A stretch of DNA of 64,000 nucleotides from a virus (IMGVR_UViG_2840908651_000002:298-64297), one strand, 5' to 3'. Numbered from the stretch's first letter, positions 26,920 through 62,555 are shown. Notes: generated by a model from the sequence alone, not told the origin. A program made the numbers and translations.

Positions 26920-26941
26920 CCTTGTCGCAAGATGTGAAAGG
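26920..26941 (+). promoter_or_regulatory. CGCA-NGA-UGYG leader hairpin occluding the RBS of 26950
   Basis: CCTT(G)TCGCA-AGA-TGTGA-AAGG. Confidence 0.6.
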
Positions 26942-26949
26942 AAACAGCG

Positions 26950-27423
26950 ATGGCATTTACCGCAGTACCGAAACTGGAAACCACCGCCGCAGGCAACAGC
27001 ACCGGCATTTCCATGTCCATGTCCGTGTCGCCCAAGGGGCGGCGTGCAACCGTGCGGATCACGCTCAATGCGGACGCCCAGAAGCGCCTGTTCAACCGTG
27101 CGCTCAACCCCGAGACGGACAAGGTTGACGTGCTGATCGGGCGCGGCGTCGATGAGGGCCATGCCAAGATCGTGCTGAACCCGAATGGCGCGCACCAAAT
27201 CCGCAACAGCATGAAGGGGTCGGTGTCGATCCGCATGGCGCGCTGGGACCTTCTGCCGGAAGGCAAGCGCCCCGCGGGCAGCGTGAAGCCGCTCGGTGAT
27301 GCCGAGATTGAGGGCGACAAGATCACCGCGCTCGTGCTCCTGCCCGATTGGGCCAGCCCGAAGAAGCGCGAGCGTGCCGCGGCAGACGCGAAGAGGGTCA
27401 ACGCCGGGGAGGCGCGGAGGTGA
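26950..27423 (+). CDS. Hypothetical beta-rich protein
   Basis: 157 aa, RBS AAGGA. Confidence 0.75.
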   Translation: MAFTAVPKLETTAAGNSTGISMSMSVSPKGRRATVRITLNADAQKRLFNRALNPETDKVDVLIGRGVDEGHAKIVLNPNGAHQIRNSMKGSVSIRMARWDLLPEGKRPAGSVKPLGDAEIEGDKITALVLLPDWASPKKRERAAADAKRVNAGEARR

Positions 27424-27665
27424 CGGACGACGACAAGATCGTCAGCCTGACCGGTGCGCCGCTGCACTTTTGCGGCACGCCGGGGCAGTTGTTCGACCTC
27501 AAAGAGGTTGTCGACGGGCTGGTCGAGAACGACGCGCAACAGGCCATCGTGATCGGACGCCTGCCCGACGGCAGGCTCTACGTCGGATCGACCCACAGCA
27601 CCGAGACCTGCTCCCTGCTTCTGGGGCAGGCGCAGCACTTCATCCACAAGCATTACGAGGTATGA
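27420..27665 (+). CDS. Hypothetical protein
   Basis: GTG start overlapping upstream stop. Confidence 0.65.
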   Translation: MTDDDKIVSLTGAPLHFCGTPGQLFDLKEVVDGLVENDAQQAIVIGRLPDGRLYVGSTHSTETCSLLLGQAQHFIHKHYEV

Positions 27666-27669
27666 GCAG

Positions 27670-28047
27670 ATGGTCGCCCAAGACATGAACATGGCCCGGA
27701 TCGAGGATGCCGCCCAGCTTGCGCACGAGGTCAACCGCGCCTTCTGTGCCAGCATGGGCGATGGCAGCCAGCCCCGTTGGAATGACGCGCCCGACTGGCA
27801 GCGCGAATCCGCCATTCAGGGCGTGCGCCACGCCTTCGAAAACCCGCACGCCAGCCCCGAGGACAGCCACAACAACTGGATGGCGCAGAAGGCGCGCGAC
27901 GGGTGGCGGTTCGGGCTGGTGAAGGACGAGCGCGCCAAGGAACACCCCTGCATGGTGCGCTACGACCAACTCAGCCCCACCGAGCGCGTGAAGGACGCGC
28001 TCTTTCTCGCCGTGGTCCGCACCTACCTGGCGCTGGATCACGGCTGA
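27670..28047 (+). CDS. RyR-domain protein
   Basis: SHNNWMAQK..DGW.FG..KD...K.HPCMV.YDQL...E..KD. Confidence 0.8.
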   Translation: MVAQDMNMARIEDAAQLAHEVNRAFCASMGDGSQPRWNDAPDWQRESAIQGVRHAFENPHASPEDSHNNWMAQKARDGWRFGLVKDERAKEHPCMVRYDQLSPTERVKDALFLAVVRTYLALDHG

Positions 28048-28077
28048 CCGACAGACAGAGAGAGAGGAAACAGCACC

Positions 28078-28338
28078 ATGACCACCACCAAAGGTAAATA
28101 CCGCGTCGGCACGACCTTCAATCCTAGCGGCAACGATGTCGTGGACGAGATCAAGGCGCGCGCCGCCGATCTGATCGACTTCATCGAAAATGAGATCGAC
28201 GTGCCGCCGCACGAAACGCCCAACGAAACGCGCCAGAGCGCGGAAATCGCTCGCCTCAAGGCGTTGGCGCAGACGGAAATCGAAAGCGCGGCCATGTGGG
28301 CGGTCAAGGCCGCCACCAAGCGCAAACCGGGCGAGTGA
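28078..28338 (+). CDS. Acb2/Tad1-like helical-hairpin protein (candidate immune-signal sponge)
   Basis: FNPS...VDEIK..A..LID...RLKALAQTEIESAAMWAVKA. Confidence 0.6.
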   Translation: MTTTKGKYRVGTTFNPSGNDVVDEIKARAADLIDFIENEIDVPPHETPNETRQSAEIARLKALAQTEIESAAMWAVKAATKRKPGE

Positions 28339-28348
28339 GGGCAGTCCG

Positions 28349-28621
28349 ATGAAGCAAGACAGAGACAAGCAACCAGAAACCCGCATCATCCCCGCCTGCA
28401 ACGGCGGGTATGTCGTTGAGCAGGGCTCCGGCGACCCTCGCGTCAGGTCGAACCTCATCGGTGCGTATTCCAGCGCGACCGACCTCATCAAGGCCATGCC
28501 GGAAATTCTCGGCACGGACGGCCTCGACGTGGTCGTGCGCCCGTCGATCAACGTACTGACGGGAAAAGAGGTGTTCGGCGCGCATTGCGCCAACATCCAG
28601 GACGGCTCCGACCTCGTTTAG
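28349..28621 (+). CDS. Hypothetical protein
   Basis: ATG 28349 after GAGGG. Confidence 0.6.
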   Translation: MKQDRDKQPETRIIPACNGGYVVEQGSGDPRVRSNLIGAYSSATDLIKAMPEILGTDGLDVVVRPSINVLTGKEVFGAHCANIQDGSDLV

Positions 28622-28655
28622 CAAGCCCTCGACACCACAGAAAAGGATCAGACTA

Positions 28656-29627
28656 ATGGCTGATGACGACAAGACCACCACCGACGACAACGAGCTTCTG
28701 ACCGAAGAAGAGCGCGCCGCGCTTGACGCGGAAGAAGGCGAAGAGATCGACGGCAGCGCCTCGCTGACCGACGAAGACACCCAGCGCTGGCGTGATGCCG
28801 GATGGGGCGGCGAACCCGCGCCCGCCGAGGAGGATACCGCCCCGTCTGCGCAGGGAGACGACACCACGCAGGCCGCCCAGGGCGACGACACGGTCGCGGC
28901 GCAGCAGGGTGACGATACCGCGCCCTCGGCCCAGCAGCAGGGCGATGGGGACAAGCCGCGCCAGCAGGCTCCCGTGGATACCTCGCAGTATGACAGCGAG
29001 ATCGACGGTCTGCGCCAGCAGGAGCAGGCGTTGCTGGACAAGTATGACGATGGCGACCTGTCGCGCGATGAGCTCAGGGAGCAGCAGGCGGCGCTGCAAG
29101 AGAAGATCGACAGCGCGGTCGAGGGACGCGCCATCGCCCGCAAGCAACTGGCGGACGAGACCGAGCAGTGGAACGACGCGGTATCCAAATACCTCACCGA
29201 CTACGAGGGCCTGAAATCCGAGGGCGTGATCGCAGCGTTCGACGCCGAGGTGCGCGCCGTCACGTCCAACCCCGCGCTCGCCAACCGCAGCTTCAAGGAG
29301 CAACTGGCCATCGCGCACCGCCGTCTTGTCTCGACCGCAGACGACCTCGGCCTCAAGGACGTCCCGCCGATCAAGGGGCAGGAGCCTGCGCCACAGCCAC
29401 AGCCGCAGCCGCAGCAGCAGCGCGCCACCGACCCTCGCGGCGATGATCTGCGCACGCCGCCCAAGACGCTCGCCCGCGTTCCCGCTTCCGACATGAGCGA
29501 CACGGGCGACAGCAAATACGCCGCCTTGCAGCGCGTGGTGGACACCGGCAAGCCAGAAGAGGTCGAGAGGGCTATGGCCCAGCTTTCCGACGAAGAGCGC
29601 GATATCTTCTCGTCCATGATGGTCTGA
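28656..29627 (+). CDS. Scaffolding-like acidic protein
   Basis: Acidic, coiled-coil, located before capsid; C-terminal AMAQLSDEER. Confidence 0.7.
   Translation: MADDDKTTTDDNELLTEEERAALDAEEGEEIDGSASLTDEDTQRWRDAGWGGEPAPAEEDTAPSAQGDDTTQAAQGDDTVAAQQGDDTAPSAQQQGDGDKPRQQAPVDTSQYDSEIDGLRQQEQALLDKYDDGDLSRDELREQQAALQEKIDSAVEGRAIARKQLADETEQWNDAVSKYLTDYEGLKSEGVIAAFDAEVRAVTSNPALANRSFKEQLAIAHRRLVSTADDLGLKDVPPIKGQEPAPQPQPQPQQQRATDPRGDDLRTPPKTLARVPASDMSDTGDSKYAALQRVVDTGKPEEVERAMAQLSDEERDIFSSMMV
28851..28931 (+). repeat. 27-nt tandem repeat (QGDDT x3) in scaffold gene
   Basis: CAGGGNGACGAYAC at 28851, 28878, 28905. Confidence 0.8.
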
Positions 29628-29658
29628 TCGGGCCGAACGAAAGAAAGGGAGGCGCCGA

Positions 29659-29862
29659 ATGCTGGTGCTCAGGCTGAAAGCGTCGGACCGCGTGCAGGTC
29701 GGCGACCTGGTCTTCGAGATCAAGGAAGCGGCGGCAGGGCGTGTCCGTATCGCGTTCGGCGCTCCAAAATCCATCCCGATCCACAACGATACGAGCGGCG
29801 GCCCACCCGTGTTCGACCTCGACGAGCCGGAAGGAGGCATCACGCTGCATTCGCTCGAGTGA
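29659..29862 (+). CDS. CsrA/RsmA-fold RNA-binding protein (divergent)
   Basis: MLVL......V.VGD..........VRIA..APK.I.IH aligns with CsrA MLIL..........IGD...........VRIG..APK.V.VHR; RBS GGGAGG. Confidence 0.75.
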   Translation: MLVLRLKASDRVQVGDLVFEIKEAAAGRVRIAFGAPKSIPIHNDTSGGPPVFDLDEPEGGITLHSLE

Positions 29863-29893
29863 TCGAGGTATCACCCGATGGACGGAGACTGAT

Positions 29894-29921
29894 GGGGGCG
29901 TGATCTGCGCCCCCTTTTCTT
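29894..29921 (+). terminator. Intrinsic terminator ending the portal-scaffold-csrA unit
   Basis: GGGGGCG...CGCCCCC then TTTTCTT. Confidence 0.8.
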
Positions 29922-29930
29922 GTGACACAA

Positions 29931-29969
29931 CATATGGTATGCGTTTAACAGCTAGAGCGCATGATGTGC
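29931..29969 (+). promoter_or_regulatory. Late promoter box plus leader hairpin (capsid)
   Basis: CATATGGTATG-N15-GCGCA TGA TGTGC. Confidence 0.7.
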
Positions 29970-30006
29970 CTATGCAGGTCGTTCAAAACCCGCATGAGGA
30001 AACATT

Positions 30007-31101
30007 ATGCCCCAGACCATCATCCCCTTTGGCGACGTCAAGGCCCAGAAGAAGTGGTCCTCGAACCTCGCCGTCGACGTCCTCCACAAGAGCTACTTTT
30101 CCAAGAAGTTCATCGGCAAGGGCGACAACAACATCATCGAGCAGAAGACCGAGCTTGAATCGGACAAGGGCGAGAAGATCAGCTTCGACCTGTCCGTCCA
30201 GCTTCGCGGTGGCCCGACGCAGGGCGATGCCCGCGTGAAGGGCAAGGAAGAGAACCTGCGCTTCTACTCGGACGAGGTCATCATCGACCAGACGCGCAAA
30301 TCGGTCTCCGCTGGCGGCCGCATGACTCGGAAGCGCACCGCGCACGACATGCGCGTCGTCGCCAAGAACCGCCTCGGCGACTACTGGTCGAAGTACATCG
30401 ACGAGCTCATGTTCATCTACCTTTCCGGCTCGCGCGGGATCAACGAGGATTACATCGAGCCGACGGACTTCACCGGGCACGCGGGCAACCCGATCCAGGC
30501 GCCCGACACCCAGCACATCCTCTACGGCGGCGATGCGGTGTCCAAGGCCACCATCGTGGCGGCGGACAAGATGACCCGCAACGTCATCGAGCGTGCCTGC
30601 ACCAAGGCCCGCATGATGCGCGCCCTCGACCCCACCACCGCGAACATGATGCCGGTCTCCATCGAGGGCGAGGACCGTTACGTCACGGTCATGTCGCCCA
30701 ACCAGGAGCAGGACCTTCGCACGGATGAAGGCAACGGCTGGCTCGACGTCCAGAAGGCCGCCGCTGCCGCCGAGGGATCGAAGAACCGCATCTTCAAGGG
30801 CGGCCTGGGCATGATCAACAACGTGATCCTGCACAGCCACGAGAGCGCCATCCGGTTCAGCGACTATGGAACCGGCTCCGATCTCCCCGCCGCGCGGGCG
30901 CTCTTCATGGGCCGGCAGGCCGGTGTCTGCGCCTACGGCACCACCAAGGGCCAGCGGTTCATGTGGAAGGAAGAAATGGAGGACTACGATAACGAGCCGA
31001 CCGTCGTGGCGGGCACCATCGTTGGGTGCAAGAAGACCCGCTTCAACGGCAAGGACTTCGGGATCATGGCCCTCGACACCTACGCCACCCCGGCTGGCTG
31101 A
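30007..31101 (+). CDS. Major capsid protein (N4-gp56 / DUF4043 type)
   Basis: TELESDKGEKISFDL..QL..., GKEENL....DEVIIDQTR, F.G.DFG. Confidence 0.92.
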   Translation: MPQTIIPFGDVKAQKKWSSNLAVDVLHKSYFSKKFIGKGDNNIIEQKTELESDKGEKISFDLSVQLRGGPTQGDARVKGKEENLRFYSDEVIIDQTRKSVSAGGRMTRKRTAHDMRVVAKNRLGDYWSKYIDELMFIYLSGSRGINEDYIEPTDFTGHAGNPIQAPDTQHILYGGDAVSKATIVAADKMTRNVIERACTKARMMRALDPTTANMMPVSIEGEDRYVTVMSPNQEQDLRTDEGNGWLDVQKAAAAAEGSKNRIFKGGLGMINNVILHSHESAIRFSDYGTGSDLPAARALFMGRQAGVCAYGTTKGQRFMWKEEMEDYDNEPTVVAGTIVGCKKTRFNGKDFGIMALDTYATPAG

Positions 31102-31169
31102 TGTGACTGAGGCGGGCGCGTGGAGCGCCCGCTTCGCTACGTAAACCGGACTGAAACAGGATCAGACCC

Positions 31170-31610
31170 ATGCTCCAGCAAAACGATTTCGCATATGGCC
31201 GCGCCCAGCAGCCCGTCGGCTACGCCTTCGGCGTCGTCTGCGCCGCCATCCTCACCCACGAGTTCACCGAGGATTTCACCGCCGCGTCGGACGTCCTCGA
31301 GCTCGGCTTCCTGCCCGGCGGTGCGCAGGTCATCGGCGCGACCCTCATCGGCGAAGGGCTCGGCGTGATCACCGCCGATATCGGCACGATGGACGGCAAG
31401 GCGGGCGAGAACGACGCCACCCGCGCGCTCACCACCGACCTGCTCTTCGATGCCGTCTCCGTGAACGATGCCGAAAATGCCGCCACCGTGCTCAACTGCC
31501 TCGGGATCGCGCGCGCCGCGGACCATCGCGGGATCGGGGCCACTCTGAGCGGCGACGTGGCTGCGGGGGCGGGCAAGAAGATCACCGTCGTCCTCCAATA
31601 CATCTACTGA
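31170..31610 (+). CDS. Putative capsid decoration/cement protein
   Basis: Beta-rich, D.LELG.LP.GA.V; follows capsid. Confidence 0.65.
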   Translation: MLQQNDFAYGRAQQPVGYAFGVVCAAILTHEFTEDFTAASDVLELGFLPGGAQVIGATLIGEGLGVITADIGTMDGKAGENDATRALTTDLLFDAVSVNDAENAATVLNCLGIARAADHRGIGATLSGDVAAGAGKKITVVLQYIY

Positions 31611-31645
31611 TCCCGCGCGGATCGAAACCAAAAGGGAGAAGCAAG

Positions 31646-32119
31646 ATGCTGATCGTCTCCAAGATTCAGCGCACCGGTGGCAGCCGCGTGACAGTGGGCG
31701 GCTCTGATTACCATTTCGAGCCGCGCGGCCCGAAGGGAGAGCATGTCGCCGAGGTCGAAAACGAGGCGCACATCAAGCGCCTCCTTTCCGTCCCCGAGGG
31801 GTTCGAACCCTACGACCCCGGTGAGGCCAAGGACATCATGCCGGACCCGGACCCGGAGCCAACGCCCGAAGAACGCCTTGAATCGGCGATCGAGCCCGAT
31901 GGCAACGATGAGGGCGTCGATGACGGCGACGACGACACCGCTGAAGACAGCCTCGAGAACAACGTCGAGCCCGACCAGGACGACGGCCTCGAGGATATGT
32001 CCGACCTCGATCTGTCGCACGCCTACAAGGACGAGTTCGACGCCATGCCGCGCAAGAACATGAAGCGCGAAACCATTATCCGGCACATCCGCAAGGCGCG
32101 CGCCGACGCTGAAATCTGA
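31646..32119 (+). CDS. Hypothetical protein with acidic linker and small C-terminal helical domain
   Basis: 157 aa, RBS GGGAG. Confidence 0.75.
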   Translation: MLIVSKIQRTGGSRVTVGGSDYHFEPRGPKGEHVAEVENEAHIKRLLSVPEGFEPYDPGEAKDIMPDPDPEPTPEERLESAIEPDGNDEGVDDGDDDTAEDSLENNVEPDQDDGLEDMSDLDLSHAYKDEFDAMPRKNMKRETIIRHIRKARADAEI

Positions 32120-32127
32120 GGTTTCAC

Positions 32128-32826
32128 ATGCCCGCGCTCATTGCCAAAGACGTCCTTGAGCGCGCGCAGACGCTCCTGCAAGACCCAAACGGCACGCACT
32201 GGCCACTCCCCGAGTTGGCCAGTGCGCTCAATGACGCCCTTCTCGAAATCTGCCTCACGAAGCCGTCGGCCTGCGCCGAAACGGTCGTCCTGTCATTGCA
32301 GGAAGGCACATGGCAGACGCTCGATGCGGGGCAGACCCAACTCCTGCGCGTCGTGCGCAACATCACCAGTGGGGCCGGTGACGCCGTTCGCACCTCCAAC
32401 CTGGCGATCACGCCCATCGAGCGGGACGCGCTCGACAACCAGATACCCGACTGGCACGACGCGACACGGCACCCGGCCTCGGCGACCGTCCTGCATGTCA
32501 TGACGGACCCGATGAACCCCACCGATTTCTACGTCTACCCGGCCAACGACGGCAATGGGCAGATCGAAGCGATGGTGGCGGTCGAGCCGACGTCTGTCTC
32601 AATCCCCGGCGTGGGGCCGGACGTGCTGACCAACTACACCGACGAGGTCGATATCTCGCCCATCTACAAGTCGGCGCTGATTGACTACATCCTCTACCAG
32701 TCTCACGCCAAGGACATGCAGATGGCCGGCGCATCGCAGCGTGCGATGGCGCATTACCAGTCGTTCCTGTCGAAGCTCGGGGTGCGTCGCAAGGTCGAGG
32801 CCGTGGCCACCCCGGATTCCGCATGA
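32128..32826 (+). CDS. Head-tail adaptor (DUF6682-like)
   Basis: L.RA..LLQD....W...EL...LNDA; FYVYP; AL.DYILY. Confidence 0.75.
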   Translation: MPALIAKDVLERAQTLLQDPNGTHWPLPELASALNDALLEICLTKPSACAETVVLSLQEGTWQTLDAGQTQLLRVVRNITSGAGDAVRTSNLAITPIERDALDNQIPDWHDATRHPASATVLHVMTDPMNPTDFYVYPANDGNGQIEAMVAVEPTSVSIPGVGPDVLTNYTDEVDISPIYKSALIDYILYQSHAKDMQMAGASQRAMAHYQSFLSKLGVRRKVEAVATPDSA

Positions 32827-32851
32827 AGCGCAAACCGAAGCAGGGGGCGCA

Positions 32852-33511
32852 ATGTCGAGCACCATCAACCTGATCGAGTTCCTGCCGCTGGTGCGGCCGC
32901 ACGCGCCCGGCGCGGCGATCCCCAACATGACGCAGGCGCTTCGCAAGGCAGCGATCGAGTTCTGCGAGAAAACCCGGTGCTGGCGCTACCGCGTCAACGT
33001 GCAGGTCACGCGCCAGGATTACCCCGTGGTGACGCCCGCTTATGCGGAGATCCACGAGATCGAGCGCGCCGAGTTCGATGGCAACCGCCTCACCCCGGTC
33101 GAATACGATGATCTGACCTTCCAGGAGCTTTCGCAGGCCGAGGCGGGCGTGCCGCACCTCATCACCCAGATGACCTATGACCAGGTCGCCATCGTGCCGT
33201 TTGCCACGGGCTCTTTGTCCCTTTCTCTGTTCCTCAAGCCCCGGCACGGGGACAATATGACCACCGGCACCGATGGCCTGCCGTCGAATTTTTACGATCT
33301 GGTGCCCGAGGTCTTGTATTCGCGCTTCGGGGAGACCATCGCATCGGGCGCGATCGCACGCCTTCTCATCATCCCGCAGCAGCCGTTCACCAACCTCGAT
33401 CTGGCCGCCGTGCATCAGGCGAAATTCGAGGACGGCGTGAGCCGGTTCAACGCGGCCAACGTACGCGGACAGCACCGCGCCCGCCCGCGCGTCCGCGCAA
33501 GCTGGTTTTGA
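32852..33511 (+). CDS. Second adaptor / tail tubular protein
   Basis: FLP.V.P..PG......ALR.AAIEFCEKT.CWR; IASGA.ARL. Confidence 0.7.
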   Translation: MSSTINLIEFLPLVRPHAPGAAIPNMTQALRKAAIEFCEKTRCWRYRVNVQVTRQDYPVVTPAYAEIHEIERAEFDGNRLTPVEYDDLTFQELSQAEAGVPHLITQMTYDQVAIVPFATGSLSLSLFLKPRHGDNMTTGTDGLPSNFYDLVPEVLYSRFGETIASGAIARLLIIPQQPFTNLDLAAVHQAKFEDGVSRFNAANVRGQHRARPRVRASWF

Positions 33512-33523
33512 GGTGGCCGCTCC

Positions 33524-35317
33524 ATGAGACTGCGCTTCACCACGTTCCAGGGCGAGCTCCCCCGGCTGCACAAGACGCTCCTGCCCGATGGCGCGGCACA
33601 GGTGGCGCTCGACACCAACCACGAACGCGGAACACTCAAATCGCTCCATGACGATCTCGCTCTGCACGACGCGAGCCCGTCCGTGCCTGCGGATTTCTAC
33701 CTGCACAACGGCACGTCCTGGCTCACCTTCTCCAAGAACGTCGATGTCGTGCCCGGGCCCGTCGCCGATGATCGTCTTTACATCACCTATGATGATGGTT
33801 CTGCCCCGATCATGAAGGACATGAGCGACGGCGGCGCGGAGTATCCGCTGGCTCTGCCGACCCCGTCCGCAGCGCCGATCACGAGCATCGAGACCGCGTC
33901 GCAGGACGCCACCTATGGCGACCCTCAAACGCCTTACGATCCGGGTCTGACCAATACCGAGTTCATCACCGCGCTCTACAACGACGTGCTGGGCCGCGAC
34001 CCCGATGCCGCCGGTCTGGCCTTCTGGGTGGGGCTTCTGGACGATGGATCGCTTACGCGCGAGGAAATAATCGACGAGTTTGCGAGTCGCGTGCCGCCCT
34101 CAACATCGCTGCCGCAGGAAGACCGAATCTACGTCTATACCTGGGTGTCCTCTTTCGACGAAGAAAGCCTGCCAAGCCCGCCCAGCACGTCGCTCACGGT
34201 GATCGAGGGAAGCACGGTCAACGTCTCCTTCATCGACCAGCCGCCCAGTGGCAGCCGGATCAACCGACTGCGCGTCTATGTCAGCCAGACCACCGCGCTC
34301 GGGGCCACGGAGTTCTTCTTCATCAAGGAGTTCGACATCGGTGTGACCGCCTACGTCCATGATTTCGAGACGGACCCGCTGCAAGAGCTTCTGCCGAGCG
34401 CATCCTACGATCCTCCCGTCACGGGCCTCGAGGGTGTCACGCGGATGCAGTCGGGGATGATGGCGGCGTTCAAGGGCAAGTCGGTGTATTTTTGCGAGCC
34501 ATACCGGCCCCACGCATGGCCCCAGAGGTACGAGCTTCTGACCGAGAACGATGTCGTGGGTCTCGTTGCTTTCGGGTCCATGTTGGCCGTCCTGACCACC
34601 GGTGAGCCCTACATCGTGCAGGGGACAGCACCGGAAAACCTCATCATGGAGCGGATCGAGCAGAACGCCCCGTGCGTGTCGGCAGACGGGATTGTCGATC
34701 TCGGCTATGCTGCGGCCTATCCCAGCACGGACGGACTCATCACCCTATCGCAATCGAGCGGCGCACAGAACATCACGCGCGGGCTCTTCGAGCGGGACCA
34801 GTGGCGGGAGTTGAAACCAGAAACGTTCAGCGCGGGCGCACGGGACGGGGCCTATGTGTTCAGCTTCGATCCCGGCGACGGCGGCGGGCGTCAGACGGCC
34901 ATGATCGCGCTCAATGCGCAGCAACCCAGCTATGTCCGCACGTCCAACGGCGCGGACAAGCTCAGGTTCGACGTCTACACCGGCAACCTGCACTACATCG
35001 ACGGCTCGAGCATCATCAAGGAGTTCGCCAGCACGCAGGCCGGGTATCTGGCCGTCGATTGGCAGTCCAGGCAGGCGCACCTGCCGACACTGACCAGCTT
35101 TGCCGCGATCCTCGTAGAGGGAGAGGAATTGGCCGACCCATCAGGGTTCGAGGCGACTGTCTACCGCGATGGGGTAGAGCACACCACCATCACGACCCTG
35201 GGCGAGCCCGCCCGCCTTGCGTCGGGCCTCGGGCGGCGCTGGTCCGTGCGCGTGAAGGGGAAGGTCGAGATCACGCGGATCACGCTCGCGGGAGACATGA
35301 CGGAAATCTGGGGGTGA
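33524..35317 (+). CDS. Tail nozzle / tubular-B-like protein with DUF4214-like insert
   Basis: F.GELPR...LLP; R.YVYTWV...EES.PS; F.EPY.PHAWP; insert at about 33950-34090. Confidence 0.75.
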   Translation: MRLRFTTFQGELPRLHKTLLPDGAAQVALDTNHERGTLKSLHDDLALHDASPSVPADFYLHNGTSWLTFSKNVDVVPGPVADDRLYITYDDGSAPIMKDMSDGGAEYPLALPTPSAAPITSIETASQDATYGDPQTPYDPGLTNTEFITALYNDVLGRDPDAAGLAFWVGLLDDGSLTREEIIDEFASRVPPSTSLPQEDRIYVYTWVSSFDEESLPSPPSTSLTVIEGSTVNVSFIDQPPSGSRINRLRVYVSQTTALGATEFFFIKEFDIGVTAYVHDFETDPLQELLPSASYDPPVTGLEGVTRMQSGMMAAFKGKSVYFCEPYRPHAWPQRYELLTENDVVGLVAFGSMLAVLTTGEPYIVQGTAPENLIMERIEQNAPCVSADGIVDLGYAAAYPSTDGLITLSQSSGAQNITRGLFERDQWRELKPETFSAGARDGAYVFSFDPGDGGGRQTAMIALNAQQPSYVRTSNGADKLRFDVYTGNLHYIDGSSIIKEFASTQAGYLAVDWQSRQAHLPTLTSFAAILVEGEELADPSGFEATVYRDGVEHTTITTLGEPARLASGLGRRWSVRVKGKVEITRITLAGDMTEIWG

Positions 35318-35320
35318 GCC

Positions 35321-36529
35321 ATGAACAACCGCCAGCAGCGTGATGTCGAGCGCCTGACAGGCCGCCGCCGCGACACGGCACAGCGGGCGATCCTGTGGTC
35401 CGAGCTCGAAACCCTTGCACAGAAGCTCTCGGGGATGCTCAGGACGCAGAAGGCCGCCAAGGTCATAGCGGAGCAACTGGACGGAACCTCTCTCAGCGAA
35501 ACAGCGATCAACCGCTCCAACGCGATCCGTGAGGTCAACCAGCTTATCGACAGCACCAACGAGTTCATCGCGAACGAGGCGGCGCGGCTCGATGCGTCCG
35601 ACCAGGCAATCATCGACACGAACATTGCCGCGGTCGAGGTGCGGCTTGATGACGCCGAGGTTGCCGTTCAGGACGAGATCACCGCGCGCACCGACGGGGA
35701 CACCGCGCTCGGACAGCAGATCACGACGGTCGAGGCCAACCTTGCCGCCGCCGAAGCGAACGTCACGCAGAACGCCAGTGCGATCGCGACCATCGAGGGA
35801 TTTCAGGCGGCAACCTATTCGCTACGGGTGGACGCGGGAGATGCCGAAGGCTCCCTCGAGCTTGTCGCCGCCGACGATCCGATCAACGGTCCCGCCAGCG
35901 CCGTGCGGATCAGGGCCGACAACATCCTTCTCGATGGCACAGTTCTTGCTCATCACATCGACGTGGCGTCTCTGGCTGCCGATGTGGGTTTTATCGGAGA
36001 GCTCACGACCAACACCGCGTTCATCGGCGATCTGACCGCGCAGACCGCGTTCATCCAGGACATCCAGGCTATCGACATTTCCGCCGACCGGATCACCAGC
36101 GGAAAGGTGGGGACTGATTTCATCGACTTTGACGGAACATCGCTGTCGAAGGACCCCGTGACCGGCTACCTGCAAGTAGCGGTCGAAGGCATCCAGACCT
36201 TCAACATCAAGCCCCAGGAGGTGACGACCGGCGGGTTTTCCGCGAACGGATCGGACTTCAACTTCACTGGCGTCGCCGGAGCGAAAGCGATGATTTGGGC
36301 CGCGGCGCAAGAAATAAACGGCGACCCGAATGGGGAAGCTGAAATCCGGCTTAATGGCACAACACTGGTTACAATTCCAGTCCCGCCGAGCACGGTTGTT
36401 TCGTTCTTTGCTTTCTCCAATCCGTCCGGAGCGGGCTCCGTAACAAGTGGCTCAAATACGGTCAGCCTGTTCATAAGTGGCGGCAGCGTGGAGAAACGCA
36501 ACCTCATGGCCCTACAGGCAAAGGTTTAG
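35321..36529 (+). CDS. Tail tip / host-specificity J-like C-terminal region protein
   Basis: E.TAR...D.AL...ITTV.A coiled coil; IRADNILLDG; ISADRITSG. Confidence 0.65.
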   Translation: MNNRQQRDVERLTGRRRDTAQRAILWSELETLAQKLSGMLRTQKAAKVIAEQLDGTSLSETAINRSNAIREVNQLIDSTNEFIANEAARLDASDQAIIDTNIAAVEVRLDDAEVAVQDEITARTDGDTALGQQITTVEANLAAAEANVTQNASAIATIEGFQAATYSLRVDAGDAEGSLELVAADDPINGPASAVRIRADNILLDGTVLAHHIDVASLAADVGFIGELTTNTAFIGDLTAQTAFIQDIQAIDISADRITSGKVGTDFIDFDGTSLSKDPVTGYLQVAVEGIQTFNIKPQEVTTGGFSANGSDFNFTGVAGAKAMIWAAAQEINGDPNGEAEIRLNGTTLVTIPVPPSTVVSFFAFSNPSGAGSVTSGSNTVSLFISGGSVEKRNLMALQAKV

Positions 36530-36531
36530 CC

Positions 36532-37122
36532 ATGACACTCGGAACGCATGTCACAGTCTATGATGCCGCAGGCGAAATCCTGCGCTGCGTCGCGGTGTTC
36601 GACCCGCGCGATGCGTCGATACAGGCCAAGGAAGGCGAGTTCTGGCTGCTTGGCAAGTCGGACCCTAAGCGCGACCGCGTCAATGCGGGCGTCATCGTGC
36701 GCAAGACAGCGGCTGAAATCGAGGTCATCGAATTTGCAGAGGCTTTGCCATCCGCAAAGCGCGAGATTGTCCTGCTGGTTCGCCAGAAGCGCCTCGAGTT
36801 CATCACGGATTTGCCCGCGCAGGTCGAGGTCTACAAAAAGAAGGAGGCCGAGGCTCGTGCCTATCTCGTCGACCCCGCGCCCGATCTGGCCGATTACCCC
36901 CGGCTCTCCGACGAGATAGGCATTACCGCCCCAACCGCGCAGGACTTGGCCACGCTCTGGGTGGCGATGGCCGACGCATGGGATGCGGCGGATCGCACCG
37001 TGGAGCGCGCACGCATGGAGGCGAAGGCTGCGCTTGCGGGCGCCACCACAACCGCTGAAGTGGACGCGGCCATGACGGCGCTGCGCGTGGCGCTCGACGC
37101 CGTCCAGCCGCCCGACCTTTGA
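36532..37122 (+). CDS. Tail fibre assembly-like protein
   Basis: Q..VY..K..EA.AY; follows tail tip gene. Confidence 0.6.
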   Translation: MTLGTHVTVYDAAGEILRCVAVFDPRDASIQAKEGEFWLLGKSDPKRDRVNAGVIVRKTAAEIEVIEFAEALPSAKREIVLLVRQKRLEFITDLPAQVEVYKKKEAEARAYLVDPAPDLADYPRLSDEIGITAPTAQDLATLWVAMADAWDAADRTVERARMEAKAALAGATTTAEVDAAMTALRVALDAVQPPDL

Positions 37123-37149
37123 AAAGCGCGTCCTTTCCCGCCCGGCCTA

Positions 37150-37189
37150 CATATGGTATGAAACAGGTATCCCCGCGCAGGATGTGCGG
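37150..37189 (+). promoter_or_regulatory. Late promoter box plus leader hairpin (internal virion operon)
   Basis: CATATGGTATG-N14-GCGCA GGA TGTG; stem CCGCGCA/TGTGCGG. Confidence 0.7.
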
Positions 37190-37227
37190 CCAAAACGCTT
37201 ACGATCAGGCGAAAGGCCAGCCATTCC

Positions 37228-37689
37228 ATGCCGCTACCCAACGATCAGATTGACGATCTCGCCCGGGAATGGGCTCTGGGCGACGAGGACGCGGTGCGGT
37301 TCCTGGTCAATTTCATGCACATGGTGCGACTGGCCGACGACATCGCCGACGGTGATAGCGCCGCGCCGGTGCCGGACATGGCCAACCTGCTTGTGCGGGC
37401 CTGGCTCGAGCATTCGTGCAACCCCTTCTTCCAGAGGCACAGCGGCGCGCTTGGCGCTACGATGGCGAACGCGGTTCTCATGTGGGAGAAAAGCGAGGAC
37501 TGGCGGCAGAGCGACAACCGCAAGACCCGCATGTTTGCCTTCGTGGCCCGAGAGACGGTCGAGCATGTCGCGCACACCGTTGCCTTCATCGTGGGCGGCT
37601 ACCAGCACGCGAAGGAGGTAGCGCAGGAAATCCACGAGTTGAGCCATCAGGCGAGCGGCGAAACCTTCGAGGATTGGGAGGTAGAGTAA
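37228..37689 (+). CDS. Helical protein with DDxxD motif
   Basis: VRLADDIADGD; NPFF. Confidence 0.75.
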   Translation: MPLPNDQIDDLAREWALGDEDAVRFLVNFMHMVRLADDIADGDSAAPVPDMANLLVRAWLEHSCNPFFQRHSGALGATMANAVLMWEKSEDWRQSDNRKTRMFAFVARETVEHVAHTVAFIVGGYQHAKEVAQEIHELSHQASGETFEDWEVE

Positions 37690-39472: not shown

Positions 39473-39483
39473 GGAGGACGCAG

Positions 39484-41346: not shown

Positions 41347-41352
41347 TCTCGC

Positions 41353-41479
41353 TTGACCGGCGAATCGCGCCGCGCTATCTATCCTCGCAGGATCACCTTG
41401 CTTTTCATCCATCCTTGCGAGGGTGTCCTGTCCGACCAGATGGGGTCCGGTGCGCTCGTCGCACCGGACCTTTTCTTTT
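41353..41479 (+). ncRNA. Candidate small RNA with own promoter and terminator
   Basis: TTGACC-17-TATCTA; hairpin 41383-41422; 11-bp terminator stem 41444-41470 plus TTTTCTTTT. Confidence 0.5.
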
Positions 41480-41507
41480 GCCGCTGCTTCCCTGCCAGCC
41501 CCGTCTT

Positions 41508-41545
41508 TGCTAAGGTGCGCGAGACATACCGCGCATGATGTGTGG
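41508..41545 (+). promoter_or_regulatory. Late promoter-like box plus leader hairpin (giant gene)
   Basis: TGCTAAG...CCGCGCA TGA TGTGTGG. Confidence 0.6.
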
Positions 41546-41574
41546 CCACCCTCCAACTCCGTAAGGGGAAAGCT

Positions 41575-54565: not shown

Positions 54566-54604
54566 CATGTGGTATGGATAGGCCAGCAACGCGCAAGATG
54601 TGTG
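54566..54604 (+). promoter_or_regulatory. Late promoter box plus leader hairpin (tail fibre/DGR)
   Basis: CATGTGGTATG-N14-GCGCA AGA TGTGTG. Confidence 0.7.
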
Positions 54605-54638
54605 CTGCAAGCTGACTTTCTCAGGTCGAGGCTTTGCA

Positions 54639-58474: not shown

Positions 58475-58888
58475 ATGCAAACACAGAAATGCAACCACCC
58501 GGAAGCGTCGATCCTGCACAAGTGCCGCGAGGTGATCAAGCTGCTGAACGTGCACCTCAATCACTTCCCGCGCCACGAGCGCTACGGGCTGTGTCAGCAA
58601 ATCCGCGGCGCGATGTATGACGTCTATGCGCTGATTGTGGAGTGCCATAAGCGGTACCACAACAAGACCAGCCTGACGCGCTTGGACGTGCGGCACGAGC
58701 AACTGCGCATGCTGGTCAATCTGGCGTTCGAGATGGGCTATTACGCATTTCACGACAACAAGCGCGGTCGGGCAGAGTCCGAAGCGCTGCGCCGATATAC
58801 CGCGGCCTCCATCCTCATCAACGAGGTTGGGGCCATGATCGGCGGATGGATTCGCAGCCTTCGGGGTGCGGATAGGGCGGGGGCTTAA
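58475..58888 (+). CDS. avd: DGR accessory variability determinant (four-helix bundle)
   Basis: L..FPRHERY.L..QIR...; L..LD...EQLR.LV.LA...GY; E.G.MIGGWI; basic; located between VR and TR. Confidence 0.92.
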   Translation: MQTQKCNHPEASILHKCREVIKLLNVHLNHFPRHERYGLCQQIRGAMYDVYALIVECHKRYHNKTSLTRLDVRHEQLRMLVNLAFEMGYYAFHDNKRGRAESEALRRYTAASILINEVGAMIGGWIRSLRGADRAGA

Positions 58889-58892
58889 AATG

Positions 58893-59012: not shown

Positions 59013-59127
59013 ACTTCATCCCTGAAATCCCGAGATGGGAATACTGGAGACATAGGGAGCACTCTGTCCTGCCAGATGGCGAAATCTGCAAGGCATGGCT
59101 TTCCAGTACCTGCGGGGACCGTCAGCC

Positions 59128-60126
59128 ATGCCTAAGCGCCACGGAAACCTCTATGAGCACGCCTTCACGCTGGACCGGCTGCACGCGGCCTATCTGCGCG
59201 CACGGCGGGGCAAGCGAAAGACGCTGTCGGTCAAGCGCTTTGAGCGCGACCTTGGCGCCAACCTTGCTGCAATACATGATGATCTGACGTCCGGAGATTA
59301 CAGGCCGCAGCCCTATCGTCACTTTACCGTTTACGGCCCGAAACCCCGCCGGATCGCCGCACCCACGTTCCGCGACGTTGTCGTGCAGCACGCGATCTAC
59401 GCCATGATCAGCCCGATCTTCGAGGCGACGTTCATTGACCAAAGCTATGGATGCAGGGCGGGCGGCGGCGCGCACCGGGCCAGTGACTACCTGCAATCGG
59501 CGATGCGCGCCGCGCCCGAGGACGCTGTGCTTCTGCAAATGGATATCCGCAAATTTTACTACCGCATCGACCACGCCATCCTGCGCAGCCTGATCGAGCG
59601 CAAGATCAAGGACCGCGCCCTTGTCGACCTGATGATGCGCTTCGCCTGCGATGGCTCCGGCACCATCGGCCTGCCGATCGGCAACCTGCTCTCGCAGATT
59701 TACGCGCTGATCTATCTCGATGCGATGGATCACTTCATCAAGCGCGACATGAAAGTGAAGCGCTATGCCCGCTATGTCGATGACTTCGTGATCATCGCCG
59801 AGGATCGAGAGACTGCGCGGCGCATCAAGGGGCAAATCGAGGCATTCCTGTCTGATCGGCTGAATCTTGAGCTATCCAAATGGCGCATCGCAACCCCGCG
59901 CCAGGGCACCAATTTCGTTGGCTTTCGGACGTGGCGGTCCCGCCGCTTTGTGCGCAAGCGCGCGCTCTACAACTTCTCGAAGGCGCTTCGAGAGGGCCGG
60001 GTGGACAGCCTCACAAGCATCATGGGCCACGCGAAACGTACATCGAGCTATGCCCACATGGCGCGCCGCCTGTCGGCTGAGCGGCCAGACCTGAAATTGC
60101 CACGCAAGCTAGAGGCGACCCTATGA
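59128..60126 (+). CDS. DGR reverse transcriptase
   Basis: PKPR.I.AP.FRD.VVQHA, DI.KFY..IDH, GLPIGNLLSQ, RYVDDF, FVGF. Confidence 0.96.
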   Translation: MPKRHGNLYEHAFTLDRLHAAYLRARRGKRKTLSVKRFERDLGANLAAIHDDLTSGDYRPQPYRHFTVYGPKPRRIAAPTFRDVVVQHAIYAMISPIFEATFIDQSYGCRAGGGAHRASDYLQSAMRAAPEDAVLLQMDIRKFYYRIDHAILRSLIERKIKDRALVDLMMRFACDGSGTIGLPIGNLLSQIYALIYLDAMDHFIKRDMKVKRYARYVDDFVIIAEDRETARRIKGQIEAFLSDRLNLELSKWRIATPRQGTNFVGFRTWRSRRFVRKRALYNFSKALREGRVDSLTSIMGHAKRTSSYAHMARRLSAERPDLKLPRKLEATL

Positions 60127-60662
60127 TCTACAGCTACACAACGCACATCACCACCGGCCCCAACGGCGCGATACTGCGCTTTCGCAACACCGAAGATCAG
60201 GACGCGACCGTGCTGGGCGCGATCGGCGGCGCGACCATTGTGCATGTGCCCGATGGCGTCACCATGCCCGCCCAGCCCGCCGAAATCGGCTGGGCGCAGG
60301 TCACGCTGTCTGATGCAGACCGCACGACCTTATCCCGGACATCGCCTGTGGCACGACGCATCAAGGAGCGCCGCGACAAGGCAATGATTGGCGGAGTGAT
60401 CGTCAACGGCATTTCCATTGCCACCGACGACCTGTCCCAGCAGCGCATAACGGGCGCTGCGCTCGCGGCACAGATCGACAGCACGACCACGGTTCAGTGG
60501 AAGATGCCGGACAGCACGTTCGCGGTTCTGGATGCGGCACAGATCACCGGAATCGCGCAGGCGGTTCGCGCCCACGTCCAGGCGTGCTTTGACCGCGAGG
60601 CCGAGCTGTTATCCGCGCTGTTTTCGGGTGAGCCCTACGACATCGAAACGGGATGGCCGTAA
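60123..60662 (+). CDS. DUF4376-like tail fibre assembly protein
   Basis: IK..RD....GG..V.G....TD..SQ; WK..D; AV..HVQACF.RE. Confidence 0.75.
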   Translation: MIYSYTTHITTGPNGAILRFRNTEDQDATVLGAIGGATIVHVPDGVTMPAQPAEIGWAQVTLSDADRTTLSRTSPVARRIKERRDKAMIGGVIVNGISIATDDLSQQRITGAALAAQIDSTTTVQWKMPDSTFAVLDAAQITGIAQAVRAHVQACFDREAELLSALFSGEPYDIETGWP

Positions 60663-60719
60663 CCCATGATCAGGCAAGTGACACTAGCCAAGTCTCAAGA
60701 GATCACGGGGGGATCGTAA

Positions 60720-61091
60720 ATGCTCTCAACAAAGGCATTTGCCTGGTCAAGCACGGCATTCTTCACCTGGGCCGTCGCGATTATAGAGACATACGGCTCA
60801 AGCCTGTTCGCCGTGGCGCTGGCCGCATTCGGTGCTCTCCTTGCGTCGGTAGAAGCCGAAACGCGGCACTGGCTCACGCGCTGCATGGTGCTCGTCTTCA
60901 ACTTCCTGACCGGCGTCATGGGGGGCGCGACGGTAGCGTTTGCTGTTCACGACAGAATGGGCGTCACGGCACCGTTCGTCCTGCTCCTTGCTTCACTGGT
61001 CATCGCATATGTCGCGCACGATGCGCTTGCTGGCGTGAAGATGGCCATCGCGTCGCGCGTGTCTCGCTGGCTTCGGGGGGGGCGGAAATGA
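60720..61091 (+). CDS. Putative holin
   Basis: Three to four TM segments, basic C-terminus, upstream of endolysin. Confidence 0.7.
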   Translation: MLSTKAFAWSSTAFFTWAVAIIETYGSSLFAVALAAFGALLASVEAETRHWLTRCMVLVFNFLTGVMGGATVAFAVHDRMGVTAPFVLLLASLVIAYVAHDALAGVKMAIASRVSRWLRGGRK

Positions 61092-61201
61092 AGAGGATCG
61101 TCAGATCGCATTTATGGCGTCGCGCGAGGGAGGTTTTCTCTGTTCTCTCGTGGCTCGCAATTCTGGGGTCGCTGGCCCTCATTTGGGTAGGGGGAAGGTG
61201 A
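61088..61201 (+). CDS. 37-aa single-TM protein (possible antiholin/lysis accessory)
   Basis: MKRIVRSHLWRRAREVFSVLSWLAILGSLALIWVGGR; ATGA/TGATG coupling on both sides. Confidence 0.55.
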   Translation: MKRIVRSHLWRRAREVFSVLSWLAILGSLALIWVGGR

Positions 61202-62259
61202 TGATAAAGCGCACCATCACGCACTGGACCGCCGGGGGTGGGCGCGCGTCGGCAGTGGACCTGCGCCATTACCACAGGCTCACCGAGTTCGACGGAACCT
61301 ACGTGAAGGGCAACGAGGCGATCGAGGATAACATCGTGACCTCGGACGGCGACTACGCGGCCCACACGTTGCACCTCAACACCGGCAGCATGGGATTGGC
61401 CATGTGCGGCATGAGGGGCGCGCAGGAAAGCCCGTTCGATGCCGGGCCGTCGCCCATCACCGAAAAGCAGTTCGAGCGCCACTGCGCTCTGCTCGCGGCC
61501 CTGCACATCGAATATGCGGTGCCGGTCACGCCCGAGACATGCCTGACCCACGCCGAGGTCGAGCCGCGGCTGGGCGTCAAGCAGCGCGGCAAGTGGGATC
61601 TGACGCGCGTGCCGCACCGGCCCGAGCTGCGAGGTGCCTTTGCCGTGGGCGATTACATGCGCGGGCGCGTGCGGGCCTACATGGAGGACATGACCGGCAT
61701 CCCCGATGTCGTGGCCAATCGCCCGACCTTGCGGGCGGGCGCGCGCGGTGAGTTTGTCCGCGACCTGCAAGGCCAGCTTCGCGACCTGGGCTACCCGCTC
61801 GGCAAGGTGGATGGCATCTACGGCGCGCGCACCCGTGACGCCGTGCTGTCGTTTCAGGCCGAGCAGGGGCTTGCCACCGATGGCGAGGCCGGGCCCCGCG
61901 TCTGGACGGCGCTGGAACGTGCCACGGCCCGGCCCGAGCGCGAGGTGACGGAGGCGGACCTGCGGGAGCGTGGATCGCAGACGATCAAGCGCGCCGACCG
62001 GGGCGAGAAGGCCATGACAATCGTGGAATCGACGGTCGCCGGCGGCGCGTCCCTCGGCGGTGTCATGGAGGCTGCGCGGGTGGCGAAGGATGCCGAAGGG
62101 CTGCTCGAGACCGGCCAGAGGTTGCTGCAAGAGTATTGGCTTCTCCTGCTGGTCTGCGTCGCCGCGTTCGTGCTGGCGCGCTACGGCAAGCGCATCCTGC
62201 GCGAGATCAAGGAATACCGCGTCAAAGACGCGCGTGAAGGAAGGAACCTTTCGCGATGA
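61201..62259 (+). CDS. Endolysin: amidase-2-like domain, PG-binding domain and C-terminal TM
   Basis: HWTAG, HYH, AAHT..LN..S.G, THAE, GKWD; LQ..L..LGY..G.VDGIYG.RT..AV..FQ...GL..DG.AGP. Confidence 0.9.
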   Translation: MIKRTITHWTAGGGRASAVDLRHYHRLTEFDGTYVKGNEAIEDNIVTSDGDYAAHTLHLNTGSMGLAMCGMRGAQESPFDAGPSPITEKQFERHCALLAALHIEYAVPVTPETCLTHAEVEPRLGVKQRGKWDLTRVPHRPELRGAFAVGDYMRGRVRAYMEDMTGIPDVVANRPTLRAGARGEFVRDLQGQLRDLGYPLGKVDGIYGARTRDAVLSFQAEQGLATDGEAGPRVWTALERATARPEREVTEADLRERGSQTIKRADRGEKAMTIVESTVAGGASLGGVMEAARVAKDAEGLLETGQRLLQEYWLLLLVCVAAFVLARYGKRILREIKEYRVKDAREGRNLSR

Positions 62260-62555
62260 TCGCCCGACTTCTCGCCCCCGTCGCCATGCCGCTCCTCGGG
62301 GTGCTGCTCGCCGCTCTTGTTGGATCGGGTGGCTGGATAATGCTGCAAGCGCGCTGGCTGGAGAATGCCGAGACGACGATCAAGCAGCGCGAGGCAGAAC
62401 TGTCCCGCGCGCTCGGCCGCGCCGAAACCTGCACCAACCGTTTGCGTAATATCAAGGAGGCACAGCAAGATGCTGAAACCGCTGCTGATCCTAGCTTTGT
62501 TGTCCCCGAGCACTGGCTGTCTCCGGGAGGTAGAGCCGACACCCCCGCCGATTGA
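62256..62555 (+). CDS. i-spanin (Rz-like)
   Basis: N-terminal TM plus coiled coil after endolysin. Confidence 0.75.
   Translation: MIARLLAPVAMPLLGVLLAALVGSGGWIMLQARWLENAETTIKQREAELSRALGRAETCTNRLRNIKEAQQDAETAADPSFVVPEHWLSPGGRADTPAD

Follow-up and report, generated by a model that had tools for sequence, protein, structure and literature searches.

Late-gene leaders of the phage

The viral DNA stretch IMGVR_UViG_2840908651_000002:298-64297, whose full 64,000 nucleotides (nt) we call the window, belongs to a temperate podophage of the Bcep22 type with ~64% G+C. Its late block on the + strand carries genes for the small and large terminase subunits, the portal, the major capsid protein (30007-31101) and the internal virion proteins, and further on for a polyvalent DarB-like protein of 4321 amino acids (aa; hereafter the product of the giant gene), a tail fibre with a diversity-generating retroelement (DGR) and an endolysin. 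The intergenic leaders of four late units (the capsid gene, the operon starting at 37228, the giant gene and the tail-fibre gene) share a small hairpin motif, and a gene of the CsrA family stands directly before the capsid unit (Table 1). Judged from sequence comparison, this element is real at five main sites and wider in extent than an earlier note on this DNA had recognised, and its reading as the target of a regulator is plausible.

Exact matches to GCGCANGATGTG number four in the window (29957, 37175, 41531 and 54591), all of them on the + strand and intergenic, against an expectation of 0.11, and this count was matched by 0/100 shuffles; for the shorter CGCANGATGYG we found nine matches with 1.14 expected, and again none of 100 shuffles reached nine. 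The five intergenic sites of the earlier note were recovered as these four and a fifth, TCGCAAGATGTG at 26925, and the enrichment over shuffled sequence that it had proposed to check was borne out. So was the spacing it had described for the four main sites, 44-53 nt before the start codon and 14-16 nt after an extended -10-like box: with ATG 30007, ATG 37228, GTG 41575 and ATG 54639 as the likely starts, the motif-to-start distances are 50, 53, 44 and 48 nt. The loops of the four hairpins read AUGAU, AGGAU, AUGAU and AAGAU in this order, so that GGA is present in one of the four.

Table 1. Coordinates of the leader elements and of other features in the window (bits, score of the covariance model described in the text; RBS, ribosome-binding site)
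Feature	Position	Strand	Sequence or remarks
CsrA-family gene, 67 aa	29659..29862	+	last gene before the capsid transcription unit; candidate trans-acting factor
Intrinsic terminator	29894..29914	+	between csrA-like gene and capsid promoter; stem of 9 base pairs (bp), then TTTTCTT
Extended -10 box, capsid promoter	29935..29943	+	TGGTATGCG
Capsid-leader hairpin	29955..29971	+	core GCGCAUGAUGUGC at 29957-29969; 22 bits
Capsid translation start region	29990..30009	+	CGCAUGAGGAAACAUUAUG; putative long-range helix partner; second CGCAUGA / GGA copy over the RBS
Extended -10 box	37154..37162	+	TGGTATGAA
37228-operon leader hairpin	37173..37189	+	CCGCGCAGGAUGUGCGG; 29.4 bits
Strong intrinsic terminator	41442..41472	+	5' of giant-gene promoter; 13-bp stem, then TTCTTTTG
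Extended -10 box	41508..41516	+	TGCTAAGGT
Giant-gene leader hairpin	41529..41545	+	CCGCGCAUGAUGUGUGG; 26.5 bits
Extended -10 box	54570..54578	+	TGGTATGGA
Tail-fibre / DGR target gene leader hairpin	54589..54605	+	ACGCGCAAGAUGUGUGC; 22.2 bits; orthologue in L083
RBS-adjacent copy	26925..26943	+	UCGCAAGAUGUGA; directly followed by the AAAGGA RBS of gene 26950 (AAAGGA-N7-ATG)
Possible early-left copy	8882..8894	-	UCGCAAGAUGCGA; order: TTGCAT-N18-TATATT promoter-like site, hairpin, GGAUGG, AUG
Polyvalent virion protein, 4321 aa	41575-54540	+	domains: inorganic pyrophosphatase-like, methyltransferase-like, Strawberry-notch-type helicase (AAA_34, Helicase_C_4), LPD39
DGR accessory gene, bAvd-like	58475-58888	+	3' of the 1264-aa tail-fibre gene
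DGR reverse transcriptase	59095-60126	+	3' of the 1264-aa tail-fibre gene
Tyrosine integrase, Arm DNA-binding domain	62735-64000	-	right end; frame reaches the window edge
GapR-like DNA-binding protein	10400-10654	+	E 6e-33

The sequence TRTGGTATG stands exactly at 29933, 37152 and 54568, the giant-gene site carries TGCTAAGGT, and all four boxes, of the form TG(G/C)TA(T/A)(G/A)nn, end 14-16 nt 5' of GCGCA. No two-hexamer sigma70 promoter was found in 29000-42000, and the promoter assignments in the window rest on the extended -10 boxes and on relatives. At an equal distance from the capsid element, relatives carry TGCTATAAG or TGCTATAGT, or full TTGnnn-N17-GATAAT promoters; those of Burkholderia, Ralstonia and enterobacterial type have a canonical TTGnnn-N17-(G/T)A(T/G)AAT promoter whose -10 ends 13-18 nt before CGCA. 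Because of this promoter spacing the hairpin would be transcribed, with its stem beginning at about +4 to +9 if the start is assumed to lie ~7 nt past the -10. We also observed a CTT(C/T)CC box ~21 nt 5' of the TGnTA boxes in 24 promoter units of the window's clade (for example at 29914-29920 and 41471-41476); a late factor may use it as a -35-like element, or it may be no more than the T-tails of the preceding terminators.

A conserved hairpin and a competing fold

The capsid-leader element has an orthologue in nearly all relatives, across a set of ~80. GCGCA-NGA-(N)-GUGC lies 45-55 nt before the capsid ATG in nearly all of 48 related viral contigs, and the element is also found in the capsid leaders of Bcep22, Itty13, LASTA, Parlo, Skulduggery and PEp14 and of most of 36 genome loci. 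The other main sites have orthologues as well: the 37228 hairpin in L073 and L005, with an AGA loop and a C-to-U change that keeps the pairing, and the giant-gene hairpin in L078, L080, L077 and L086. In the five genomes closest to the window, the unit of extended -10 box and hairpin recurs three to five times per genome on one strand, preceding orthologues of the window's late genes; strand counts in five related genomes were 8/1, 2/4, 0/4, 4/0 and 4/0, and a reversed control pattern gave two matches altogether. Most relatives carry the element in the capsid leader only, and within positions 1-50000 of the Bcep22 genome the unit of promoter and hairpin occurs only 5' of the capsid gene; the spread over several leaders is therefore a feature of the window's clade. 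Four prophages of Stenotrophomonas, Thermomonas and Lysobacteraceae (L126, L127, L129 and L131) have two capsid-leader hairpins in tandem, GCGC-AGCA-GUGC and GCGC-AGAA-GUGC. Two relatives, L139 and L141, lack the element; they are the most remote of those that have no CsrA-like gene 5' of the capsid gene.

In an alignment of 39 distinct leader hairpins the element is a 6-bp stem, NNGCGC/GUGCN'N', with a loop A-NGA-(N) whose first variable position is taken by U, A or G in real leaders. None of the inner pairs (C-G, G.U, C-G and G-C or G.U) is broken; all 39 hairpins, from different leaders and distant phages, share GCGC/GUGC and the A, G and A of the loop, and this includes the loop-closing C10-G16 pair and the G.U pair. 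The outer pairs vary, with CG 18, UG 5, AU 4, GC 4, GU 3 and five unpaired at 6-20, and CG 19, AU 5, UG 2, GC 1, GU 1, UA 1 and ten unpaired at 5-21; pair 4-22 found no support in this alignment. The covariation score of the outer pairs was 0.255 against 0.123 +/- 0.019 in shuffles (0/500 as high; slid controls 0.06-0.10), and permuting flanks among 34 unique flank combinations gave 67.8 +/- 5.6 consecutive outer pairs against the 96 observed (0/10,000 as high). Ten leaders selected by the composite pattern itself (L049, L050, L055, L057, L058, L059, L061, L063, L064 and L066) were left out of both the alignment and the flank test.

The earlier note had argued for an RNA structure from outer stems that differ yet stay complementary around a constant G-U pair. 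The compensatory changes and the universal G.U pair agree with this, although the window's own capsid site is weaker than it had claimed, since its outer stem requires a bulged A or an A.C mismatch. Stem covariation, tolerated G.U pairs, strand specificity and the position 3' of predicted promoters favour the RNA reading; in particular, the acceptance of wobble pairs, the invariance of the G.U pair and the strand bias support an element that acts as RNA rather than as a DNA palindrome.

The further hairpins of the earlier note fared less well. A covariance model built from the 39 leader hairpins, with the four main window sites in its training set, finds only these four in the window; the copy at 26926 reaches 10.8 bits at E 1.7, and the sites at 8883, 31641, 62465, 22466 and 32820 are not reported at E<=10. 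The looser GC-ANGAU-GC pattern seen at 31641 and 62465 has 12 matches with 6.0 expected, a count reached by 2/100 shuffles, which we do not regard as above chance, and the surroundings of 31641 are conserved in the closest relatives alone (L002, L005 and L008), not in L011, L013 or L015. These weaker hairpins are indistinguishable from background. The early-left copy is convincing in its layout (Table 1), but a search of five related genomes returned a single identical 13-mer in G002, outside a leader context, and its membership is uncertain because no conserved counterpart was found. The first early-left gene itself (8512-8911, - strand) encodes a small protein with two CxxC pairs, zinc-finger-like by eye, for whose longer reading frame Pfam returned nothing.

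At 26925 the earlier note had described a hairpin that sequesters the RBS, and RNAfold indeed pairs an upstream CCUU with the AAGG of the RBS. This copy has an orthologue with a UGA loop in L002/L005, and the same layout occurs at two paralogous sites in L001. We also considered whether the RBS-adjacent layout CGCANGANGTGAAAGGA is enriched in general, and rejected this: 30 stretches were found in 2.9 million viral contigs, in 27 distinct contexts, 12 of which have a start codon 3-10 nt downstream, by rough estimate not above chance, so that support for the layout reduces to the orthologue and the two L001 paralogues.

A second fold, missed by the earlier note, competes with the hairpin. Bases of the loop and 3' arm can pair, in the capsid leaders, with the sequence between RBS and AUG or with the AUG itself, and in the window the motif copy CGCATGAGG overlaps the capsid ribosome-binding sequence, as had been noted before. 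The two sides of this helix change together between clades (CAUGACGUG/CACGUCAUG, CAUGAGUGC/GCACUCAUG, GGAUGUGC/GCACAUCC, GGAGCUGCC/GGUAGCUCC, GGAGUGC/GCACUCC, GGAAGUGC/GCACUUCC and CAUGAUGUGC/GCACAUCAUG). Cognate duplexes were calculated at -13.3 kcal/mol against -9.9 +/- 0.47 for permuted partners in 31 leaders, and at -14.0 against -9.8 +/- 0.5 kcal/mol in 29 leaders from the independent genome loci, with 0/10,000 permutations as good in either set; the cognate advantage is thus 3.4-4.2 kcal/mol in two independent sets. In the genome-loci test the motif of L115 was mislocated onto the start region, and L124, L125, L128, L139, L140 and L141 were unscored. The capsid and 37228 leaders of the window are unusually complementary to their own start regions (1/48 and 4/48 control genes as good). 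Pairing of the motif with the start region is also what the minimum-energy fold shows for each of the four window leaders; the best fold with the hairpin intact lies 4.7-7.3 kcal/mol higher. The capsid leader can adopt either of two folds, each supported by covariation, and these are mutually exclusive, since both draw on the 3' arm.

The CsrA-family gene and its surroundings

The gene at 29659-29862, also missed by the earlier note, is flanked by the scaffold-region genes on one side and by the terminator and promoter of the capsid unit on the other. Its 67-aa protein matches the Pfam CsrA family (PF02599; E 5.3e-6, 26.7 bits); a profile built from 17 homologues in phages hits RsmE (2jpp) at E 1.5e-12 and further CsrA chains at E 4e-9 to 3e-7. 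The AlphaFold model predicts strands at residues 2-7, 11-14, 17-20, 28-33 and 41-44, with a mean predicted local distance difference test (pLDDT) score of 69 and ~81-85 over residues 1-40; this corresponds to the five-strand CsrA arrangement of ~45 residues, with its N-terminal ML.L strand and AP(K/D)xVxI strand. The protein is syntenic with Bcep22 gp54, a 'CsrA-like regulator', and its gene is a member of a Bcep22-like set that includes Bcep22 gp54, JC1 gp47 and the genes of DC1, GP4, LASTA, Parlo and PEp14.

A CsrA-like frame directly 5' of the capsid gene is found in 38/43 viral contigs with upstream sequence and in 24/36 genome loci, and likewise in Bcep22, Itty13, LASTA, Parlo, Skulduggery and PEp14. 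In prophages of Agrobacterium/Rhizobium type (L030/G007, L111/G012 and L113/G013) the CsrA-like gene and the capsid locus are ~31-33 kilobases (kb) apart, and the coordinates suggest that both belong to one prophage; the open frame around the match in G007 has 189 aa, and the capsid leaders of these prophages keep the hairpin and a perfect start-region complement. In the window, the leader of the csrA-like gene itself (29628-29658) reads ACGAAAGAAAGGGAGG, with A-AGA-A just 5' of the RBS, which is a possible autoregulatory site without a hairpin.

In RsmE targets, the loop reads A(N)GGAX and the stem beneath it ends in a C-G pair; RsmZ SL3/SL4 are examples with 5-nt AGGAX loops (PMC4005645). 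The phage hairpin resembles these targets in its A-NGA-N loop of 5 nt on a C-G-closed stem, and differs from them in leaving the first position of GGA open to U, A or G (in the window, GGA stands in one loop of four, as given above) and in that the GCGC/GUGC stem with its G.U pair is invariant. The capsid leader has a possible second site, CGCAUGAGGAAAC, ~35 nt 3' of the hairpin, and an RBS directly adjoins the copies at 26925 and 8882; in the other three leaders a consistent second site was not seen.

The remaining genes place the phage among its relatives. At the DNA level the capsid gene shares 70-74% identity with its counterparts in Bcep22, BcepIL02, DC1 and Ralstonia GP4-like phages, and the 4321-aa protein resembles the DarB-like gp75 of Bcep22; the phage collection searched contains no close relative of the window. 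The integrase at the right end indicates a temperate element or prophage. Relatives of the capsid protein come mostly from Alphaproteobacteria (Thioclava, Rhodoblastus, Mesorhizobium, Agrobacterium, Rhizobium, a Brucella sp. record and Hoeflea), the remainder from Beta- and Gammaproteobacteria, and together with the GapR-like gene this suggests an alphaproteobacterial host. In the head-gene block, 28078-28338 (+) encodes an 86-aa protein with an Acb2/Tad1 hairpin domain (Pfam PF24729, E 9.7e-12), a family of phage sponges against cyclic-nucleotide defence signals, and 27670-28047 (+), in the gap between portal and scaffold region, a 125-aa protein with a RyR domain (E 2.1e-10). The window holds no tRNAs and, over its whole length, no Rfam match at gathering thresholds; the public sequencing runs checked for 29600-31200 included no RNA run with the sequence.

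Possible roles of the hairpin

On balance, we think it probable that the phage's own CsrA-like protein has its operators in the hairpins and would through them set the translation or the stability of the late mRNAs; both the binding of the hairpin by the 29659-29862 protein and the sign of regulation are what we infer. The element would stand at the 5' end of the four late units, where the hairpin, transcribed ~40 nt ahead of the competing start-region sequence, would form first, and the CsrA-like protein would recognise its loop and stem. A hairpin clamped in this way would leave the start region open and turn translation on; this activating version is slightly favoured because the long-range closed fold is the more stable by calculation, and the position of the csrA-like gene at the end of the portal-scaffold operon would give a sensible timing of capsid synthesis. 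It is about as possible that one dimer bridges the hairpin and a GA/GGA site on the RBS and thereby represses, which would fit the 26925 and 8882 copies because these abut the RBS. Protection of the 5' end against decay is also about as possible, and may add to either activation or repression. The fuller picture of a self-contained late switch, in which every late mRNA, or at least that of the capsid, starts with its own hairpin operator, the 3' half of which would otherwise close off the start codon, and in which a phage CsrA re-tuned to NGA locks the hairpin and so licenses capsid translation only after expression of the portal-scaffold-csrA operon, rather than being a host-directed 'moron', is one that we put forward tentatively and consider doubtful.

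Several observations weigh against the operator model or limit it. The Pfam score of the 67-aa protein falls slightly below the curated cutoff of 27, and a Foldseek search of the monomer model against the PDB gave no match at E<=0.001, although the monomer of a swapped dimer may well give none, and this outcome counts neither for nor against the assignment. The kinship of the sequences inflates shuffle-based covariation tests. In the Xanthomonadales group, the four tandem-hairpin prophages among them, the leader shows no complementarity to its start region; in Itty13, LASTA and Parlo this complementarity is weak, L121 and L135 are further exceptions, and in the window the giant-gene and fibre leaders are no better than controls (17/48 and 25/48 as good). 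Moreover, three of the four main loops are UGA or AGA. According to PMC4005645, the RsmE backbone reads the loop G and A, Arg44 contacts the loop backbone or stacks on A, and GGA-to-AGA changes abolish binding, so that the phage protein would need an altered specificity, which is assumed here.

The residue aligned with Arg44 of RsmE, an arginine that CsrA and RsmE require to bind RNA, is Asn in the window protein and N, H, V, I, K, M, F, C or R among relatives (Arg or Lys in the tandem-hairpin prophages), and relatives of the Arg44 type carry AGGA(N) loops. An association of Arg44 with GGA loops was perfect in the first 28 rows; over 51 rows, 42 agree (22 Arg with GGA and 20 non-Arg with non-GGA, against six non-Arg with GGA and three Arg with non-GGA). 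This association also belongs on the negative side, as it fails phylogenetic pairing (sign test p ~0.5): the capsid tree, drawn without the partial capsids of L102 and L103, offers 5-6 independent contrasts, of which ~1.8 are concordant, none opposite and 3.2 without difference, and PEp14 (Arg, UGA loop) and three Xanthomonadales prophages (Arg, AGAA/AGCA loops) contradict it. The Arg44-GGA link is not evidence for the model. Of the earlier note's proposal of a CsrA-like RNA-binding regulator with relaxed NGA specificity, the regulator has gained a concrete, syntenic candidate and the loop shares the layout of RsmE targets; the relaxed specificity could not be tied to any residue.

A protein-free RNA device acting in cis, in which the hairpin stabilises the late mRNAs or sets their folding and the csrA-like gene acts elsewhere, seems to us unlikely. 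In such a device the helix over the start region would tune capsid translation constitutively or by temperature or ribosome load, and the covariation of both folds would need no protein; it is also favoured by a 5'-terminal placement that is deduced from promoter spacing, by the failure of the protein-loop correlation in the phylogenetic test, and by the prophages whose csrA-like gene lies ~31-33 kb off. A stabiliser or switch needs pairing only, yet the stem core and the loop A, G and A never vary in sequence in the alignment, which indicates a sequence-specific reader, and the csrA-like gene is tightly syntenic with the element. The motif could in principle act at the level of DNA, at about +7 to +20, serving as a downstream promoter element, as an operator for a late factor or as a sigma-dependent pause for a Q-type antiterminator. 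This we regard as quite improbable: compensatory outer changes, the UG (5) and GU (3) pairs at 6-20 and the invariant G.U of the core would be mismatches in DNA, RBS-adjacent copies lie inside operons without a promoter box, and the element covaries with a translation start 40 nt away. What speaks for a DNA element is the fixed distance of 14-16 nt to the -10 at four late promoters without a -35 hexamer, in a region (29000-42000) with no two-hexamer promoter, together with the CANGAT sequence, which we take to resemble a weak -10-like hexamer such as that of lambda pR'; the last base of this hexamer varies (U, C, G, A or missing), at odds with a sigma70-dependent pause, for which a hexamer with constant A at position 2 and T at position 6 would be expected early in the transcribed region.

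Improbable to much the same degree is that the phage exploits a host RNA-binding protein, CsrA/RsmA or another. The GGA loops of Burkholderia- and Ralstonia-type relatives would fit canonical CsrA sites, but the Burkholderia hosts of these phages are reported to have no chromosomal csrA (PMC7366521), so that acting on the host is not the obvious task of the phage protein either; most relatives of the window come from Alphaproteobacteria, and phages of Gammaproteobacteria, whose hosts do have CsrA, carry AGA/UGA loops of a kind that canonical RsmE does not bind. We consider highly improbable a nut- or put-like site for processive antitermination of the long late operons. A hairpin just past each late promoter, terminators between the units and a 13-kb gene downstream are what such a system might have, and the stem-loop is of a size that presumably resembles boxB. 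No N-like or Q-like protein was found by Pfam or PHROGs among the 58 window proteins scanned, however, the capsid-only distribution of the element in most relatives does not agree with this function, and the covariation with the start-codon region points to translation.

An operator read by the phage's CsrA-like protein would have several precedents. The leaders controlled by CsrA, RsmA or RsmE, and the RsmZ/RsmY decoys, often combine an upstream high-affinity hairpin with an RBS site and are read by a small CsrA-family protein; the phage case differs in having its sites at the extreme 5' end of late messages, a phage-encoded candidate regulator and a competing start-region helix. In the flhDC leader, CsrA sites at the 5' end prolong the lifetime of the mRNA. 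The phage leaders are likened to it by their 5'-end sites, flhDC being a host regulon with GGA sites. This protection of the flhDC 5' end is mentioned in PMC4005645. The activating version follows the same logic as the Com protein of phage Mu, a small protein that binds a hairpin 5' of the sequestered mom start region and opens it; unlike the phage CsrA candidate, Com belongs to the zinc-finger proteins, has no relationship to CsrA and works at a single site instead of in every late leader. In the coat-protein operators of MS2 and PP7 and in the lambda N / boxB pair, too, the loop of a small hairpin is read sequence-specifically and a neighbouring gene is controlled; the MS2 operator covers the start codon and N acts on RNA polymerase, and these proteins are unrelated to the phage CsrA-like protein.

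Annotations of CsrA homologues in phages, Bcep22-like ones and others, go back to 2011. In the accessible portions of PMC9144972, PMC8310193, PMC7366521 and PMC11879866, phage csrA genes are treated as host-acting 'morons' or their role in the phage cycle is called untested, and no target is named; our literature search found no paper that names an RNA target of a phage CsrA. For coliphage PTXU04, knock-down of the phage csrA homologue is described as giving small plaques (PMC11879866). What we newly propose here is a cis-target for a phage-borne CsrA in the phage's own late leaders, and this operator would be the first target proposed for such a protein. The phage would also supply a natural variant of CsrA with sites that do without the first G of GGA, elsewhere obligatory, and this would be useful for understanding CsrA specificity. 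In annotation the element can serve to mark late promoters and the capsid gene in a wide range of phages and prophages of Alpha-, Beta- and Gammaproteobacteria. If the self-contained switch is true, it would provide the first cognate RNA target of a viral CsrA, and a case of CsrA working mainly to activate translation, in hosts that themselves lack the protein.

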